Shown: in pieces, positions 46,212 through 54,600 of the stretch | Layout: every line of letters begins with the position of its first letter | How positions within the stretch are numbered: position 1 is the first letter of the stretch | Origin: an uncultured Gammaproteobacteria bacterium | GTDB taxonomy: Bacteria > Patescibacteriota > Microgenomatia > JAMCZE01 | Direction of reading: 5' to 3' | DNA: 64,000 nt | Assembly: GCA_964641255.1 (NCBI GenBank) | Contig: CAZXMM010000001.1 | Location: 332,302-396,301, forward strand | Position numbers and translations under genes: made by a program | The notes under the pieces: generated by a model | Told to the model about the DNA's origin: nothing | Database searches by the model: none | The model's input: only the letters and a program-made list of their open reading frames with translations

Positions 46212-46859
46212 ATGAGTTTTATGTCCAAAGAGTTGATGTTTGTTATCGGTATCGCAGTCACGACACTAGCCATTGTCATCGGAGCCGCACTATTTATGGG
46301 TGGTAAGGACAAGCCGGGAGCAAGAGCTACCGAAGAGCCGGTCGCGCAAGAAATTCTTGTTAGGCCTGATTCCTTCACTGAAGGGTCAGAAAGCGCCAAG
46401 GTAACGGTGGTGGAGTTTTCTGATTTTGAGTGCCCGGCATGTAAAGCAGCTGAGCCGATTTTAAAACAGATCAGAGAAAAGTATCGTGGTCAGATCCGCT
46501 TTGTTTATCGGTTTTTTCCGCTACCGGCTCATGAGTATGGTCTGATCAGTGCTCAGGCAGCTGAAGCGGCCGGGCGACAGGGAAAGTTTTGGGAAATGCA
46601 CGAAAAGCTTTTTGCCAATCAGCCCAATTTTCAAAAAGATCAGCTGAAGCAATACGCTCTGGAAATTGGCCTGGATCCAGAAAGATTTGCCCAGGATTTA
46701 GAATCTGACAGTGTCTTACAAAAGGTTCTAAACGATCGTTCTGATGGCGGTCGAGCTGGGGTCCAAGCCACCCCCACCTTCTTTATTAATGGCACTCGTC
46801 AGACTGGCATCCTGCCACTCGTCCAGTTTGAGCAAGAAATCACAGCGAGACTACAGTAG
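46212..46859 (+). CDS. DsbA-like thiol:disulfide oxidoreductase, membrane-anchored
   Basis: TM anchor; thioredoxin CPAC active site (FSDFECPACKAAEP). Confidence 0.7.
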   Translation: MSFMSKELMFVIGIAVTTLAIVIGAALFMGGKDKPGARATEEPVAQEILVRPDSFTEGSESAKVTVVEFSDFECPACKAAEPILKQIREKYRGQIRFVYRFFPLPAHEYGLISAQAAEAAGRQGKFWEMHEKLFANQPNFQKDQLKQYALEIGLDPERFAQDLESDSVLQKVLNDRSDGGRAGVQATPTFFINGTRQTGILPLVQFEQEITARLQ

Positions 46860-46871
46860 CTACCGATAGAG

Positions 46872-47918
46872 ATGGAGCATTTAGTTGATCGGGTCAAAAA
46901 AATTCTAGCCATTAATCCCTCGGCGGTTAAAAAACAGGCGATTATGAGGCTCGAGGCAGAGACGGCCCGCCCCTATTTTTGGCAGGAGCCCAAAGTGGCT
47001 GGGGCGAAAATGCAGCAGCTCGCCCTTCTCCAGACTGAATTGAAACAAATCACTCAATTGGAAGATTTTTTGGTGGCCCTAGAAATAGGTGACACCCCCG
47101 AAACTGCTGAAATTGAGGCAATTTGTGAGCAAATTGAATTTACCCTCTATTTTTCCGGTCTCCACGACAGTTCTAGCGCTATTGTGTCAATCCATTCGGG
47201 TCAGGGAGGGGTTGAGGCAATGGATTGGGCTGATATGCTCTACCGAATGTACTCCCGGTTTTTTACCATCCAAAAGTGGTCCGTGGAGGAACTGGAATAC
47301 GATAAAGGGGGCGAGGCGGGTATAAAGACTGTGACCTTAAGTGTTACGGGAACTTATGCGTACGGCTTTCTTAAGTATGAAGCGGGGGTGCACCGACTAG
47401 TAAGACTATCTCCCTTCAACGCTGATCATTTGCGCCAAACCTCATTTGCTTTGGTAGAAGTGATGCCGGAAGTTAGTGGCAGTAGCGAGTTAATTATCAG
47501 TGACGAGGAAATTGAGTGGGATTTTTTTAGGGCTGGGGGACACGGCGGCCAAAACGTCAACAAAGTGTCGTCAGCAGTGCGACTCACTCATATCCCCAGC
47601 GGATTAGTGGTGACCTCCCAAAAAGAGCGCGATCAAAGTCGTAATCGCGAGATCGCCCTGCGTTTACTAAGAGCTAAGTTGTTGGCACAGGAAGAAGAAA
47701 AACGCCGAGCCGAGGAGCTTAAGCTTAAAGGAGCCTACGTTACTCCAGGCTGGGGCAACCAAATCCGTTCCTACATCCTTCATCCTTACCATTTAGTTAA
47801 AGATCTCCGGACTAGTTATGAGGAAACTAATACTGAGTCAGTTTTGGACGGTAATATCAAAGGATTTTTAGAGGCTGAACTCCGGTTTTTCGCCAACTTG
47901 CAAAAAGAAAATATTTAG
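46872..47918 (+). CDS. prfB: peptide chain release factor 2 (no programmed frameshift apparent)
   Basis: SPF tripeptide (RLSPFNADHLRQTSFA) and GGQ motif (AGGHGGQNVNKV); continuous 348-aa ORF. Confidence 0.85.
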   Translation: MEHLVDRVKKILAINPSAVKKQAIMRLEAETARPYFWQEPKVAGAKMQQLALLQTELKQITQLEDFLVALEIGDTPETAEIEAICEQIEFTLYFSGLHDSSSAIVSIHSGQGGVEAMDWADMLYRMYSRFFTIQKWSVEELEYDKGGEAGIKTVTLSVTGTYAYGFLKYEAGVHRLVRLSPFNADHLRQTSFALVEVMPEVSGSSELIISDEEIEWDFFRAGGHGGQNVNKVSSAVRLTHIPSGLVVTSQKERDQSRNREIALRLLRAKLLAQEEEKRRAEELKLKGAYVTPGWGNQIRSYILHPYHLVKDLRTSYEETNTESVLDGNIKGFLEAELRFFANLQKENI

Positions 47919-47924
47919 GGAATA

Positions 47925-48416
47925 ATGACACTACCTATGGAAGAGTTAGTGCCGGTTAAAGAACCAGTGGTGTCTACTGAGGCAAAGGAAATTCATCCCC
48001 TAGAAGAGTCAAAGAAGCCACCAGTAAAGATTTTAGTGCTTCTGTCTGTTTTAGTTGTAGTTGTTTTGGTCGGAGTGGGCACCGGCTATATGGTGGCGCA
48101 AAAAAGTGGTGGGGTTAATAGAAGTGGTACATCAGGCGATGTTGAGGTGATTAAAACCGCGAACGAGGAGGGGGTCAGAGACGTCTCGACTTTTAAAGAC
48201 ACCGCTACAGGACAGCTTGAGTTAAACGATGGTAAACTAACCAAGGAGGGGGAGTACGTCCTTATCAGGGGTGATGTTTCTCAAAATGTCTATTTGACTT
48301 CTTCGGTGGTTGATTTAACAAAATACACCGGCAAGAAAGTTCAGGTCTGGGGGGAAACATTTCAAGGTCAGTCAGCTGGATGGCTTATGGATGTAGGCCG
48401 AGTTAAGGTACTTTAG
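47925..48416 (+). CDS. hypothetical membrane-anchored protein
   Basis: ORF with one TM helix; upstream of ftsE. Confidence 0.35.
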   Translation: MTLPMEELVPVKEPVVSTEAKEIHPLEESKKPPVKILVLLSVLVVVVLVGVGTGYMVAQKSGGVNRSGTSGDVEVIKTANEEGVRDVSTFKDTATGQLELNDGKLTKEGEYVLIRGDVSQNVYLTSSVVDLTKYTGKKVQVWGETFQGQSAGWLMDVGRVKVL

Positions 48417-48423
48417 ATTCCTC

Positions 48424-49098
48424 TTGATCAAATTTGTTGATGTCACCAAAAAATTCCCCGATGGGACTACGTCAGTTAGCGACGTGAGTTTTGAAGTTGG
48501 TGACGGTGAGTTCGTTTTCTTGGTCGGACCATCTGGAGCCGGCAAAACGACTATTTTACGTTTGATACTCCATGACATTGTCCCCAGCAGCGGTGAAATT
48601 ACAGTCGATGAACACGATTTGGGGAAAATTACTACCCAGAAAGTGACTCAGCTACGAAAAAAAATTGGTTTTGTTTTCCAGGATCTTAAACTTCTTATGG
48701 ACCGGAGTGTTTATGAAAATGTTGCCTTGTCTTTATGGATTCTTGGAAAAAGCAAAAAGGAGATAGACACTGAGGTTAAAGAGAAGCTTTCTTTAGTAGG
48801 ACTAGCAGATTCGGGAAGTTTTTTTCCAGCTCAGCTTTCGGGTGGGGAGCTACAACGGGCCGCAATTGCTCGGGCTTTGGTAGGTGACCCCAAATACTTA
48901 ATTGCCGACGAACCAACAGGAAATGTTGATAACGCTAACGCCTGGAAAATTATGAAAATTTTAGATAAGGTTAATAAAGCGGGGACCACGATAATTATGG
49001 CGACCCACAACAGTGAAATAGTCGACACTATGGGGAAACGGGTGATCAGGATTGATGGTGGGAGTGTTATCTCTGATAAAAAAGGGAAATACCGTTAA
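48424..49098 (+). CDS. ftsE: cell division ATP-binding protein FtsE
   Basis: ABC NBD with Walker A GPSGAGKTT, LSGGE signature, Walker B; followed by ftsX. Confidence 0.9.
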   Translation: MIKFVDVTKKFPDGTTSVSDVSFEVGDGEFVFLVGPSGAGKTTILRLILHDIVPSSGEITVDEHDLGKITTQKVTQLRKKIGFVFQDLKLLMDRSVYENVALSLWILGKSKKEIDTEVKEKLSLVGLADSGSFFPAQLSGGELQRAAIARALVGDPKYLIADEPTGNVDNANAWKIMKILDKVNKAGTTIIMATHNSEIVDTMGKRVIRIDGGSVISDKKGKYR

Positions 49099-49102
49099 AA
49101 TT

Positions 49103-49984
49103 ATGGGACACCAATTGGCCATTACTTGGCAACATATCAGGCGCAGTCCTTATCAGGCAGCCGCAGCGATTATGATTATGTCGCTGACCATTTTTGCCGG
49201 CTTGGTGTTTTTTATGCTCTCAATAGGGTCTTACCGGGTGTTAACCTATGTCGAGCAACGTCCCCAGGTCATTGCCTTCTTCGACGACAGCATTACCAGT
49301 GTTGACCAGGTCGCGGATTTAGCAAAAGAACTAAAAAATACCGGTAAAACTAAAGAAGTCCGCTTTGTTTCCAAAGAAGAAGCCCTGGAGATTTACCGGG
49401 AAAGAAACAAAGAAGACCCACTGTTACTTGAATTGGTGAGTGCTAACACCTTACCTGCCAGTTTAGAGGTTTCAGCTAAAAACGCCAGCGATCTTCCTAC
49501 TCTGTTTGGTATCTTAAATGGAGCGGCCAATATTGAAGATGTGTCATACCAAAAAGACGTAGTTAACACCTTAATAACCGTAATGGACCGGGTGCGAAAG
49601 TTCGGAATAGGGTTGATTGTATTTTTGTTGCTAACCTCTGTATTTACTGTTTTGACCATTATTGGTATGAAGATTGCTCTAAGGCGTAAGGAAATTGAAG
49701 TAGAACGCTTAATAGGAGCTTCAGACTGGTATATCCGTATGCCATTTCTTTTTGAGGGGTTGTTCTACGGAATTTTTGCGGCGGTGTTTTCTTGGGCGAT
49801 TCTTTATCTAATTGTTCTAGCTAGCACCCAGTATGTTGCCTCGTTCTTAGCTGGTCTGAATTTACTGCCGATTCCTCCCCTAATCATGCTAGAAATTTTG
49901 GGAGTAACCATTGTAACTGGCGCGCTAGTGGGGGTGACGGGTAGCTTTATTGCCGTTTGGCACTACCTAAGGGCGCAAAATTGA
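49103..49984 (+). CDS. ftsX: cell division permease FtsX
   Basis: N-terminal TM, large periplasmic loop, 3 C-terminal TMs; start set at ATG 49103. Confidence 0.8.
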   Translation: MGHQLAITWQHIRRSPYQAAAAIMIMSLTIFAGLVFFMLSIGSYRVLTYVEQRPQVIAFFDDSITSVDQVADLAKELKNTGKTKEVRFVSKEEALEIYRERNKEDPLLLELVSANTLPASLEVSAKNASDLPTLFGILNGAANIEDVSYQKDVVNTLITVMDRVRKFGIGLIVFLLLTSVFTVLTIIGMKIALRRKEIEVERLIGASDWYIRMPFLFEGLFYGIFAAVFSWAILYLIVLASTQYVASFLAGLNLLPIPPLIMLEILGVTIVTGALVGVTGSFIAVWHYLRAQN

Positions 49985-51153
49985 TGAAGAAATTAGTCCT
50001 TGCTACCCTACTTTTTAGTTGCCTTTTTTTGGGCCAGCCACCAGCAGTGGTAATTAGTGAAGATTGTGACGCGATTTGTGCGAAGCAAAAGCAAATTAAT
50101 GATCTCCAGCAAAAAATTGCTAGCACTCAAAATCAGGAAAGAACCCTCTCTTCGCAGATAGACAAAATAAATAATGATATTGACCTAACGACACTTAGGA
50201 TCGAATCTACCGAAGAGAAGCTCGGACGACTAACTAGTGATATTGCCTCAGTCTCAGGCAAAATCGATCGGATCGAAGATTCACTCGCTCATGTATCTAC
50301 AGTTCTTGCTAACCGGATTGCAGCAACCTATATCGCGGGACGGGTTGACCCCCTTTACTATTTACTATCAGCTCAGGACTTTGACGATTTGATGAGACGG
50401 TTTGATTATTTCCGGATTGTGCAAAAACACGACAAAAATCTGATGTTACAAATGGCTACTACGAGAAAGAACTATCGTGATCAAAAAGACCTACTAGAAG
50501 ATAAAAAGAGCGAGGTAGAAGAGCTATCCAGTCAGTTGAAAATCTATCAAAAAGACCTTGATCGGCAGAATGCGGAAAAGCAAACCCTACTTCGAATCAC
50601 GCAAAATGACGAACGACGCTATCAACAACTGTTATCACAGGCGCAGGCAGAGTTTAACGCTTTTCGGACATCACAATTTTCCGGTCAACGCAAAGTAAAG
50701 CGAGGTGAAGTGATTGGCTTGATGGGCAGTACTGGTTTTTCGACCGGTCCCCATCTGCACTTTGGTGTTTACAATCTTAGTGAAGACCAATTGGCTAATT
50801 GGAATTACTCATCTGGATCAACTAATCCGCTTGATTATCTGCAGTCGCGGTCGATTCGGGTAGACTCTGGAGCCTGTCATGACAAGTCAGGAATTACTAC
50901 TATAGGTAATGGTGGCTGGGAGTGGCCAATGAGCGGACCCAATGTTTCCCAGTGTTATGGCAAAACTCCGTACTCCTTTGTTTATTATAGTGGGATTCAT
51001 GATGGACTAGATTTATATGATCGGGGAGATATTCAGGTGCGCGCTGTTGATGATGGTAACGCCTACTTTTATCGTGGTTCATCATCACTGGGTAACAATG
51101 TGCGTATTTTTCACTCCAGTGGTAAAATGACAGTTTATCTCCATCTTCAGTAA
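49984..51153 (+). CDS. EnvC-like coiled-coil M23/LytM peptidase with apparently circularly permuted M23 domain
   Basis: Signal peptide, ~200 aa coiled coil, then M23 C-terminal segment (GEVIGLMGSTGFSTGPHLHF...NPLDYLQSR) located before the M23 N-terminal segment (GWEWPMSGP...YSGIHDGLDL...DDG...GNNVRIFHSSGKMTVYLHL); start overlaps ftsX stop (TGATG). Confidence 0.7.
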   Translation: MKKLVLATLLFSCLFLGQPPAVVISEDCDAICAKQKQINDLQQKIASTQNQERTLSSQIDKINNDIDLTTLRIESTEEKLGRLTSDIASVSGKIDRIEDSLAHVSTVLANRIAATYIAGRVDPLYYLLSAQDFDDLMRRFDYFRIVQKHDKNLMLQMATTRKNYRDQKDLLEDKKSEVEELSSQLKIYQKDLDRQNAEKQTLLRITQNDERRYQQLLSQAQAEFNAFRTSQFSGQRKVKRGEVIGLMGSTGFSTGPHLHFGVYNLSEDQLANWNYSSGSTNPLDYLQSRSIRVDSGACHDKSGITTIGNGGWEWPMSGPNVSQCYGKTPYSFVYYSGIHDGLDLYDRGDIQVRAVDDGNAYFYRGSSSLGNNVRIFHSSGKMTVYLHLQ

Positions 51154-51207: not shown

Positions 51208-52890
51208 ATGGTCATTTTTGGCAGGTTAACGCTGCCAACAGTGTTGGCTGGTGTTTTCTTTATTCTCGCTGCTATTTCGAGTCGTTCCACTTTCGCTTCA
51301 GAGCCGCTATTAAATAGTGATTTCGAAGACTATCACGATGACTCATTTTCTCCCTGGTTAAAAAATGTCTCCACGCTGACCCTGTCAGCTACTACTAGTA
51401 GTGGGCTAGTTTACTCGGGCTCTCAAGCTGCAGTTTTAGGTAGTAGTACTAACTCAACTAAATATCTCTATCAGGTACTGGCAGCCAGCCCCTCTGCAAG
51501 TTACCGTCTGTCGGGTTGGACCAAATTGCTCTCTGGCCAGGGATCGGCTTATCTGCGAATTACTCAGTGCAAAACGGAAGCATGCAGTAATAGCAGCGAG
51601 GAGATAAAATCGTCAGACTCAAGTAAACTAACGAACCCTACAGGAGAGGAGCTAGCGCTTCAGGTAACTACGGCGACCGATACGGTCAGCCTAAAAGTCA
51701 AACTTAGTCTGGATCCTTTGTCTGCCACGCCTACGGCTCTTGTGTGGGATGCCATTCACTGGGAGATGCAAGATTCGTCTTCCTCGGGGGAAAGGGTAGC
51801 CACCCAAGCAGCTAGTTCTAGCTCTGACCAACTATTTAGTCTCAGCTATGATCTATTGCCAGTTGTTACTGCTGATACCCCTTTTTTGGTAGCCATCACT
51901 ATTAGTGGTGCGGCACCCAACACTAGTTATTTTGTCAAAACTGTAGGGGGGGTCTCGACTGGTTCGGCAGATCTTCGAGCGGTTTCTACTCTAAATGCCT
52001 CTGGGAGTGGTTTTCTAGCCTGGAATGGAAGCTGGGCTAGTATGCCAAGTGTTACTACTGACGCCTCCGGTAGTGCTAGTCTTGTGGTTGAATCACGGTT
52101 TAACTCTGCCGCAACGGTTATAGGCAATAATCTATTTTTCGTCAGGATTAGAAAAACGGATAGTGAGACGAATTTGGACGGGCCACTGGTAGCTGTTGGA
52201 GTGTTAACTAACCAAGCGACAAGCAGCGGCACCAGTGCTGAGTCTCCAGAGACTGCGGAGGCGGTTGGGCCGGCGGTAACTTTCGAAACTAGTGGCACTG
52301 CTTTTGTTGGTAGTCCAATAGTAATCAAGCTTAAAGTTACTGGTTTGTCTGGCAGAGCCAGCTATAGCTATAAAGTGCGGTTGGGTAGTAGTGAGACTAA
52401 CCTGATAAAAGGGGCTACCGCTCATGATGATGTTTATTTAACCGATAGCTCACCTTGGTCCAAATTTCCAAGTTTCACTACTGATGATGGGGGGACGTGG
52501 CTTAGTGAAGTTAAAGGACTAGTCCGAAGCGAGTTTGGGGCCGGAGACTACTATCTGAAAATTCGAATCCGTGACCTTAGTTCGGGCAAAATTATTGATT
52601 CGGCCGTTTCTAAAATAACCTTAGCTACTAAGAGTGAAGAATCCACCGAGTCTGAGAGTGCTACTTTGTCGGGGGTGGTATTGGGTAGTACTACGACACC
52701 TCTTGTCCCGCCTCTTGTTACTGTACCGCCCGGTATGCCTGCGGAGGTTATGTCTTTGCCACTAGAGTTAGTGGTCCCTACCGAAGTGCCCAGTAATGAC
52801 TTGGGTACCCATCTTCTATCAATGGGACTTTTTCTTCTAGGATCCAGCTTCTTGTGGAGCGTGAAACTTTTGGCATATAGCCCAAGCTGA
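51208..52890 (+). CDS. Ser/Thr-rich cell-surface protein with N-terminal signal and C-terminal TM anchor
   Basis: Signal/TM at N-terminus, long low-complexity S/T-rich beta regions, C-terminal hydrophobic helix. Confidence 0.4.
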   Translation: MVIFGRLTLPTVLAGVFFILAAISSRSTFASEPLLNSDFEDYHDDSFSPWLKNVSTLTLSATTSSGLVYSGSQAAVLGSSTNSTKYLYQVLAASPSASYRLSGWTKLLSGQGSAYLRITQCKTEACSNSSEEIKSSDSSKLTNPTGEELALQVTTATDTVSLKVKLSLDPLSATPTALVWDAIHWEMQDSSSSGERVATQAASSSSDQLFSLSYDLLPVVTADTPFLVAITISGAAPNTSYFVKTVGGVSTGSADLRAVSTLNASGSGFLAWNGSWASMPSVTTDASGSASLVVESRFNSAATVIGNNLFFVRIRKTDSETNLDGPLVAVGVLTNQATSSGTSAESPETAEAVGPAVTFETSGTAFVGSPIVIKLKVTGLSGRASYSYKVRLGSSETNLIKGATAHDDVYLTDSSPWSKFPSFTTDDGGTWLSEVKGLVRSEFGAGDYYLKIRIRDLSSGKIIDSAVSKITLATKSEESTESESATLSGVVLGSTTTPLVPPLVTVPPGMPAEVMSLPLELVVPTEVPSNDLGTHLLSMGLFLLGSSFLWSVKLLAYSPS

Positions 52891-52917: not shown

Positions 52918-54600
52918 ATGAAATCCACTATCTCTATCATTCTCATTATTTTATTAGCCACCCTTCTGCGTTTGTGGCAACTAGGAAATCTTCCTTACGG
53001 CATTCACAACGACGAGACACTTAACGGCTATGTTGGCCGCTTTATCCTAGAAACTGGCAGAGATCCTTATGGTAATCCGTGGCCGCTGTTGTATGTCGAT
53101 CACTTTGGTGACTTCCCCAATGTCATTCCCATGTACCTTTCGGGAATTTTTACTTATATCTTTGGAGTTAATCCGTTTGGAGTAAGATTTCCTATTGCAG
53201 TGGTGGGAATTTTAACGGTGCCACTAATTTATCTGATTAGCAAAATACTGTTTCGCTCGATAAAAGTTGCTTTCATGGCGGCTTTTCTGCTGACCATTCT
53301 GCCCTGGCATTTGGTACTATCGCGCGGTACCGCTGAGGGAATTTTGGCTTCTTTTGTTTTTCTCCTCGGTTTTTTGGCTCTTGTCCTAGGTCTGGAGAGA
53401 GGAAAGTTTTTACTTCTATTGGGGTCTGTTTGCTTATTTCTAAGTACTTATTTGCTGTATCCCGGTTTTCGAGTTATGATTCCACTTGTCTTAATCCCCA
53501 CATTTTTACTAACTACAGTTAAACGCTACAAGATTTTTCTTGTTGTTGCCTGTCTTGTCGCCTTTAGTATCACTACTATTATCAGTACTACGGTATGGGG
53601 TAAGGGGCGTTATCTGGAAACATCAGTTTTCACCTTCAATGATTTGATAGCTCTTCGTTCTTGGGAATACTCTAGTTCGATTGGTCCCAATAAAGTTCTG
53701 GACGCCAGGATTTTCCACAATAAATATTTGCTTGCTGGCCAAGAAGTAATGAGACAGTACTTTTCTTATTTTTCCCCGGGATTTTTGGCTGGAACCGACG
53801 GGTTACCGGGGCGTTATCACGTTCCGGAAAATGGGGTGACCAATTGGTCAATTATCCTTATCTTTGTTTCGCTGGCTGTAATTTGTTGTTTTCCCGCCCG
53901 AAGACCAGTTGCCGCCATGGCTTTTTTTAAGATTGGGAAGCAAAAGTATTTTTGGTGGTTACTCTGGATTTTAGCCATGGCTCCTATCCCCGCTGCCTTA
54001 ACTATTAATGAGGTTCCCAATGTTCATCGGACCATACTTGTTGGGGTGGTTTTAATGATACTAGCGGCGGCCGCCTGGCAGCGGTTGGCTGCTTATAATC
54101 GTTTTGGGTTATGGCTGAGCCGTTTGTTGGCAGCTCTCTTAATAATTGAGTCGATCCTTTTTTGGCACCACTACGCTAAGGTGAGTCCAAAAGTAACGGC
54201 TAAATTCCGTACTTATAATAATCTGGTAGTGGGGCGTTTTTTAGCAGAACACCATAGAAATTATCCGCTAATTTATGTCACTCAGGGTGGAGACAACGCA
54301 CTGTACTTTCTTTTTGAAACTAAAAATTTTGACAAAAGTCTTGCCGGGCAATTCCATGGTAAACTGGCGGTAGACCAGGTGGATAATATTCACTTTTTGC
54401 ACTCAGATTGCTATGACCCAGACCGACAGGATCTGCCCGACAGGCCTGACTTTATCCTTATTCAGCCGGAGAAGTGTAAGCTAAACGGCACCGGTTTAGT
54501 TATTGGCGAGACTATCTATATTCCGGAAATGTTGGGCTACAACTACTACGTACTTCGACCCGACCCATTAGGTTTTCCGCTCCTGAAGGTAAATTATTAA
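52918..54600 (+). CDS. ArnT/PMT-type (GT39/GT83-like) membrane glycosyltransferase
   Basis: ~12 TM helices, N-terminal DE-containing loop (HNDETLNGYVG) typical of GT-C mannosyl/arabinosyl transferases. Confidence 0.7.
   Translation: MKSTISIILIILLATLLRLWQLGNLPYGIHNDETLNGYVGRFILETGRDPYGNPWPLLYVDHFGDFPNVIPMYLSGIFTYIFGVNPFGVRFPIAVVGILTVPLIYLISKILFRSIKVAFMAAFLLTILPWHLVLSRGTAEGILASFVFLLGFLALVLGLERGKFLLLLGSVCLFLSTYLLYPGFRVMIPLVLIPTFLLTTVKRYKIFLVVACLVAFSITTIISTTVWGKGRYLETSVFTFNDLIALRSWEYSSSIGPNKVLDARIFHNKYLLAGQEVMRQYFSYFSPGFLAGTDGLPGRYHVPENGVTNWSIILIFVSLAVICCFPARRPVAAMAFFKIGKQKYFWWLLWILAMAPIPAALTINEVPNVHRTILVGVVLMILAAAAWQRLAAYNRFGLWLSRLLAALLIIESILFWHHYAKVSPKVTAKFRTYNNLVVGRFLAEHHRNYPLIYVTQGGDNALYFLFETKNFDKSLAGQFHGKLAVDQVDNIHFLHSDCYDPDRQDLPDRPDFILIQPEKCKLNGTGLVIGETIYIPEMLGYNYYVLRPDPLGFPLLKVNY

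Follow-up and report, generated by a model that had tools for sequence, protein, structure and literature searches.

The window analysed here, a 64,000-nucleotide stretch of contig CAZXMM010000001.1 from an assembly titled uncultured Gammaproteobacteria bacterium, carries directly behind ftsE and ftsX a gene for a coiled-coil protein of 389 amino acids (aa), in which the two parts of an M23 (lysostaphin/LytM-type) peptidase domain follow each other in reversed order. We consider it very likely that this is a genuine, functional circular permutant of the M23 domain. Both the pairing of FtsEX with a coiled-coil hydrolase and the M23 family are already well known; what is new is a conserved, clade-wide topological variant of M23 and its wiring to the coiled coil. 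The gene and its parts are laid out as follows.

49984 to 51153, plus strand: gene for the 389-aa coiled-coil protein with the M23 domain in circularly permuted order (family and PDB-sequence matches)
49984 to 50055, plus strand: predicted N-terminal signal peptide or membrane anchor, aa 1–24 (hydrophobic stretch MKKLVLATLLFSCLFLGQPPAVVI; helix 2–16 in the AlphaFold2 (AF2) model)
50071 to 50667, plus strand: EnvC/PcsB-like coiled-coil region, aa 30–228
50674 to 50850, plus strand: C-terminal third of M23, placed first, aa 231–289 (phmmer and Pfam stretches; hhalign against the canonical profile)
50851 to 50913, plus strand: new linker from the old C-terminus to the old N-terminus, aa 290–310, 21 aa (family alignments)
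50914 to 51150, plus strand: N-terminal two thirds of M23, placed last, aa 311–389 (phmmer against 6muk and 3slu; hhalign against the canonical profile)

The open reading frame (ORF) spans 49957–51153 (398 aa), and its true start is most likely the ATG at 49984, which yields the 389-aa product, 100% identical to database protein P0001. The protein is predicted from its sequence to be secreted or membrane-anchored. A lipoprotein N-terminus was rejected, since the LFSC at residues 10–13 lies too near the start for a lipobox, and the segment is therefore called a signal or anchor only. The coiled coil comprises two long helices (55–118 and 133–206) followed by a third (210–228) with a conserved TxNDExxYQ motif; the export signal and the long two-helix antiparallel coiled coil in front of the hydrolase domain are those of the FtsEX-partner class. 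The C-terminal third of the M23 domain contains a GD-box-like hairpin, the HxH motif (H257-L-H259, codons 50752–50754 and 50758–50760) and then NPLDYLQSR. Cys298 (codon 50875–50877) lies in the linker, and the N-terminal two thirds run from WPM past Cys324 (50953–50955) and the HxxxD motif H339DGLD343 (H339 at 50998–51000, D343 at 51010–51012) to YLH387LQ (H387 at 51142–51144), directly followed by the stop codon (51151–51153).

The order of motifs is thus HxH...HxxxD...YxHL-stop in place of the canonical HxxxD...YxHL...HxH. A phmmer search with the 398-aa ORF, in whose numbering the query positions are given, aligned residues 276–397 to positions 193–315 of PDB chain 6muk_A and residues 243–270 to positions 321–348, and the PDB sequence 3slu returned the same swapped two-segment match. 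Pfam PF01551 scored 57.9 bits, above the family cut-off of 28.7, but the match was split into two stretches whose order is reversed. From the family alignment, a profile was built for each part, and the two were rejoined in silico as N part followed by C part, and compared with a profile of canonical order. The re-permuted profile matched canonical M23 domains of Firmicutes and of the Candidate Phyla Radiation (CPR) in one colinear alignment of 134 columns (hhalign probability 99.96, E 3.8e-39, 37% identity); the native-order profile split into two matches, query 72–159 to template 6–96 and query 4–60 to template 104–164. The cut site is the loop directly after the YxHL strand. Read one after the other, the C-terminal YLHLQ and the entry segment SQFSGQRKVKRGEVIG give the canonical YAHLS..V..GQ.V..GQ.IG, and to judge by this correspondence no residues seem to be missing at the cut.

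These results bear out most of the original prediction made from the letters of the window. The sequence strings it quoted all occur in ORF 49957–51153; its succession of ftsE–ftsX and an EnvC-like coiled-coil M23 protein is matched by Pfam and NCBIfam, and its placing of the C-terminal third of M23 before the N-terminal two thirds, after which the ORF stops, by phmmer, Pfam and hhalign. All canonical M23 ligands that it described as kept in swapped order were found (H257, H259, H339, D343), and its linker of ~35 aa had to be corrected to ~21 aa (290–310).

An odd domain order seen once could stem from a local misassembly, a chimeric contig or a decaying pseudogene in this single genome, and the unusual order itself is the only thing that speaks for such an artefact. 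The order is, however, shared widely. In all 120 homologues among the matches listed (39–100% identity, full-length coverage), HxH precedes HxxxD and the chain stops at Y[LW]HLQ. In a scan using one genome per GTDB species, the permuted order was found at 49 loci (L001–L049) from many independent studies, and among the best 150 matches of a HMMER search of 1.84 billion cluster representatives (50% identity) there were 63 more with this order. The stop falls exactly two residues after the catalytic His in 223 of 229 permuted proteins. An identical protein with the same neighbours is present on an independently assembled Logan contig, and the ORF here is intact and translationally coupled to ftsX. 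Because the order is shared by homologues, independent loci and the Logan contig, we regard an artefact as refuted and leave it practically no chance. The original prediction had named an alignment of orthologues as a check, and the 120 homologues listed show the swapped order throughout.

Among the loci scanned, the permuted order occurs only in Microgenomates-type genomes, with titles that include Gottesman-, Levy-, Collier-, Davies-, Shapiro- and Pacebacteria as well as 'Microgenomates'. The gene order prfB–hypothetical gene–ftsE–ftsX–M23 is conserved, and ftsE–ftsX lies directly upstream in ~45 of the 49 permuted loci, the genetic linkage typical of the FtsEX-partner class. Loci L050–L080 have the canonical order and belong to Kaiserbacteria and other Parcubacteria, Saccharibacteria and Firmicutes (Lachnospiraceae, Oscillospiraceae, Desulfocucumaceae). 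Many records of metagenome-assembled genomes (MAGs) titled 'uncultured Gammaproteobacteria', 'Pseudomonadales' or 'Saccharibacteria' (L004, L006, L007 and many others) carry the Microgenomates-type operon with the permuted gene. Such titles appear to be placeholders or wrong taxonomy; 'uncultured Gammaproteobacteria' was taken as a mislabel because these loci match the Microgenomates type.

A structure prediction, also named beforehand as a check, was made with AF2 for the domain alone (aa 222–389, 33 sequences). It gave one compact domain with a predicted local distance difference test (pLDDT) score of 93.3, a predicted template modelling (pTM) score of 0.90 and no residue below a pLDDT of 70, and this confidence for the lone domain speaks for one compact unit against two loose halves. 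The linker ranges from ~0 to 37 aa across the permuted family, which means that the N- and C-terminus of the canonical domain lie next to each other in space. Cys298 in the linker covaries with Cys324, part of the ITQC motif on the first strand of the N part. A linker Cys is present in each of the 132 permuted proteins with QC, many permuted proteins without QC also lack the linker Cys, and QC occurs in none of 52 canonical relatives. From this covariation, a C298–C324 disulfide probably staples the new connection in most members, which fits the extracytoplasmic location of the protein.

The two parts might instead complement each other between molecules: two chains joined by a parallel coiled coil would form a domain-swapped dimer, with the C part of one protomer paired to the N part of the other. 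Crystals of PcsB contain an interlocked dimer (PMC11627006), P0132 and P0182 have almost no linker between the parts, and the AF2 models made here are monomers only. A near-zero linker is, however, also expected if the canonical termini are adjacent, the lone monomeric domain was predicted as compact with the scores given above, and the covarying Cys pair ties the linker to the first strand of the N part, its neighbour. The same module also exists without a coiled coil, at the C-terminus of the long secreted protein P0151 (1118 aa, no other Pfam domain), where it ends in YWHLQ, and behind a simple membrane anchor in P0233 (307 aa), where it ends in YWHVE. We consider intermolecular complementation highly improbable. 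The occurrence of the permuted module in other contexts argues for an autonomously folding domain, and the domain behaves as a mobile module.

The five M23 residues H257 and H259 (HxH), H339 and D343 (HxxxD) and H387 (YxHL) are invariant in an alignment of 63 sequences, and 227 of the 229 family members retain both HxH and HxxxD. In family M23, the zinc is bound by the His and Asp of HxxxD and the second His of HxH, and the catalytic histidines are those of HxH and YxHL. EnvC-type LytM factors are defined by the loss of catalytic residues, and EnvC activates the amidases AmiA and AmiB. Should the protein be such a non-catalytic regulator, as are E. coli EnvC, NlpD and DipM, its LytM-type domain would activate a separate amidase, and the permutation would be tolerated because only a binding groove is needed. 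Against this stand the invariance of all five catalytic residues in these diverse sequences, the lack of an amidase gene in the operon and the score of the NCBIfam EnvC equivalog NF008644, which reached 43.2 bits against a cut-off of 270 and covered the coiled coil only, so that the protein is not an EnvC in the strict sense. A regulatory role is accordingly judged improbable, and since the five residues are invariant the protein is not a degenerate EnvC-type activator. Of the two possibilities left by the original prediction, the genuine circular permutant is supported by the colinear re-permuted alignment and the conserved order, and the rearranged or inactive regulator is improbable. Guided by these residues, we read the protein as a predicted, catalytically competent M23 endopeptidase that would itself be the FtsEX-controlled hydrolase.

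FtsEX partners are coiled-coil proteins, either hydrolases or activators of hydrolases, that are autoinhibited until ATP-driven mechanotransmission takes place (PMC11627006). By this standard, the third gene of the ftsE–ftsX operon would encode an extracytoplasmic, FtsEX-partnered peptidoglycan hydrolase of the EnvC/PcsB/CwlO/RipC architectural class, composed of a signal or anchor, a long antiparallel coiled coil and, as its hydrolase domain, a permuted M23 zinc endopeptidase. The chain would enter this domain at the strand after YxHL, pass through HxH to the normal C-terminus, cross the new linker to the normal N-terminus, continue through HxxxD and end two residues after the catalytic His of YxHL. 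The neighbouring ftsX product has an FtsX_ECD domain in Pfam, and, as in characterised FtsEX systems (PMC11627006), the coiled coil would dock between the extracellular domains of FtsX. ATP binding and hydrolysis by FtsE, acting via the coiled coil, would then relieve autoinhibition and let the M23 domain cut the peptide cross-links of the division septum. The last coiled-coil helix (aa 210–228), a candidate autoinhibitory restraining arm, is connected through two residues to the active-site beta-hairpin in front of HxH. With this helix fused to the HxH hairpin and the chain ending two residues after His387, both termini would lie at the active-site side. The permutation may be no neutral accident of topology but an adaptive rewiring that couples the FtsEX-driven coiled-coil lever to the active-site hairpin and keeps an invariant two-residue tail at the active site, a proposal that we offer as tentative and rather doubtful.

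The closest relatives are canonical coiled-coil M23 proteins, usually annotated 'peptidoglycan DD-metalloendopeptidase family protein', which are encoded next to ftsEX in Firmicutes (Clostridia) and are found elsewhere in the CPR (Parcubacteria, Saccharibacteria). They share with the permuted proteins the signal, the EnvC-like coiled coil and an active M23 domain, and the Firmicute examples share the place beside ftsEX. In contrast to the permuted proteins, they have the parts in N-then-C order, their coiled coil reaches the N-terminus of M23 through an additional helix and linker, and the chain ends after the NP..YL tail and not after YxHL. In the E. coli and V. cholerae FtsEX–EnvC systems (PDB 6TPI, 8TZL, 8HD0), the LytM domain of EnvC is degenerate and of canonical topology, whereas here the residues are intact and the topology is permuted. 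PcsB of S. pneumoniae, CwlO of B. subtilis and RipC of M. tuberculosis resemble the present protein in being the FtsEX-controlled hydrolase themselves, but for catalysis they use a CHAP or NlpC/P60 cysteine peptidase in place of M23 (PMC11627006). The M23 domains of lysostaphin, LytM, ShyA and Csd3 (PDB 4QP5, 2B0P, 6U2A, 4RNY) all have the canonical order, and none is attached to a coiled coil at the strand after YxHL. Precedent for natural permutation of a peptidoglycan-hydrolase domain, with a swapped order of catalytic residues, comes from the permuted NlpC/P60 families (YaeF/poxvirus G6R, LRAT-like; Anantharaman & Aravind 2003, cited in PMC6403190); these have an unrelated fold and chemistry (papain-like Cys/His) and no link to FtsEX. 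It is also a general remark in the literature that hybrid-barrel (HABAS) topologies are related by permutation.

The permutation would have arisen in a single event in the ancestor of the CPR class Microgenomates, from a canonical CPR-type coiled-coil M23 protein. Motifs common to the permuted and the canonical proteins are the TKN[DQ]E..YQ helix (LL..TKN.E..YQ.L), the G.G..WP leader, ITQ.[YF]G and HLHFGVY. A neighbour-joining tree calculated from the re-permuted domains puts 108 of the 110 permuted sequences together in a single pure clade; its two divergent outliers, L049 and P0182, have the same architecture and cut site. The tree was midpoint-rooted, the common ancestor of all permuted tips spans it because of these two members, and it provides no formal test of monophyly; a single origin therefore rests on the shared cut site, and one ancient event is the simplest reading. 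A likely route would begin with a tandem duplication of the domain, after which the first N part and the last C part were lost; this is plausible because tandem M23–M23 proteins are common, making up 44 of the best 150 profile matches. The tandem proteins inspected are BlaR1/M56 fusions and not coiled-coil proteins; P0159, P0176, P0181 and P0194 are fusions of a BlaR1-type M56 sensor-protease domain with two canonical M23 domains in tandem, and they score high because the permuted profile spans the boundary from the first C part to the second N part. Two apparent C–N–C intermediates, P0261 and P0202, were rejected as ordinary tandem N–C–N–C proteins with one part weakly detected. At the level of whole genes, an Oscillospiraceae MAG (L071, 2864–5377) carries two tandem canonical coiled-coil M23 genes directly after ftsE–ftsX, a duplication of the FtsEX partner.

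Several points weigh against this picture of a functional, FtsEX-driven permutant. A Foldseek search of the domain model against the PDB gave no match below E 0.87, presumably because sequential 3Di alignment fails on a permutant. The rebuilt M23 sheet with its three zinc ligands brought together is a prediction. FtsX binding, enzymatic activity and substrate are all assigned by analogy with characterised systems, and that activity would be directly sensitive to movement of the coiled coil is speculation, drawn as a consequence of the moved attachment point. As to the origin, no coiled-coil protein with tandem M23 domains, the direct intermediate, was found among the profile matches.

The gene lies at the end of a tight string on the plus strand, prfB–hypothetical gene–ftsE–ftsX–M23 ORF (46.8–51.2 kb of the window), whose other members are the following.

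46872 to 47918, plus strand: prfB, peptide chain release factor 2, first gene of the conserved string (Pfam PCRF E 6e-40, RF-1 E 9e-35)
47925 to 48416, plus strand: conserved 163-aa membrane-anchored protein between prfB and ftsE, function unassigned (synteny)
48424 to 49098, plus strand: ftsE, ABC ATPase, TTG start (PF00005 E 5.5e-34; synteny)
49103 to 49984, plus strand: ftsX, permease-like protein with an extracellular domain (PF18075 FtsX_ECD E 2.3e-14, PF02687 E 7.6e-11)

FtsX also matched NCBIfam FtsX_Gpos (E 1.1e-51). Its start is the ATG at 49103, a gene caller having chosen 49064, and its TGA stop overlaps the ATG of the M23 gene at 49984 by one nucleotide (TGATG). By synteny comparison, prfB stands upstream of the hypothetical gene, ftsE, ftsX and M23 in most Microgenomates loci; the prfB–ftsE–ftsX neighbourhood is similar to the streptococcal one. 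Here prfB is a single unbroken ORF of 348 aa, which makes a programmed +1 frameshift needless. The 163-aa protein has one N-terminal transmembrane helix and a beta-rich C-terminal part, with no match in Pfam, NCBIfam or PDB sequences. A homologue occupies the same position in ~40 of 49 permuted-type Microgenomates loci, and none was seen among the canonical-order loci fetched; by analogy with SweC/SweD or SteA/SteB, it could be an extra FtsEX cofactor. Four genes upstream of the M23 gene (46212–46859, plus strand) lies a gene for a DsbA-like thioredoxin-fold protein with a CPAC motif, which may be the source of oxidant for the proposed Cys298–Cys324 linker disulfide. Downstream, 51208–52890 (plus strand) encodes a 560-aa protein rich in Ser and Thr that carries a signal at its N-terminus and a hydrophobic anchor at its C-terminus and matched no family. 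Its gene is also found 3' of the M23 gene in L051 and L081, and here the next gene (52918–54600) encodes a PMT_2-type glycosyltransferase-like membrane protein.

Full-text literature searches returned no report of a circularly permuted M23/LytM domain and no paper on FtsEX partners in Microgenomates. M23/LytM domains (lysostaphin, LytM, EnvC, NlpD, ShyA) are among the best-studied cell-wall hydrolases and regulators, and the solved examples found all have one topology. A class-wide permutant with all catalytic residues implies that the fold tolerates termini two residues from the catalytic His, and with its canonical sister proteins and fixed cut site it is a clean natural case, consistent with duplication followed by deletion. 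For automated annotation, profile pipelines see only PF01551 fragments in the permuted proteins and may therefore mis-score or mis-delimit the domain. To our knowledge, almost nothing is known experimentally about cell division in ultra-small CPR bacteria, for which the conserved small membrane protein of 163 aa flagged in the same operon is also relevant. As regards mechanism, the permutation shifts the site at which the enzyme is pulled by the FtsEX-coupled coiled coil, a point of relevance to the path of the FtsEX signal to hydrolases. If the rewiring proposed above is true, Microgenomates would gate the M23 zinc site by direct mechanical strain and not by a displaceable restraining helix, which would be a novel form of FtsEX mechanotransmission and would offer a natural template from which switchable lysostaphin-type enzymes could be engineered.

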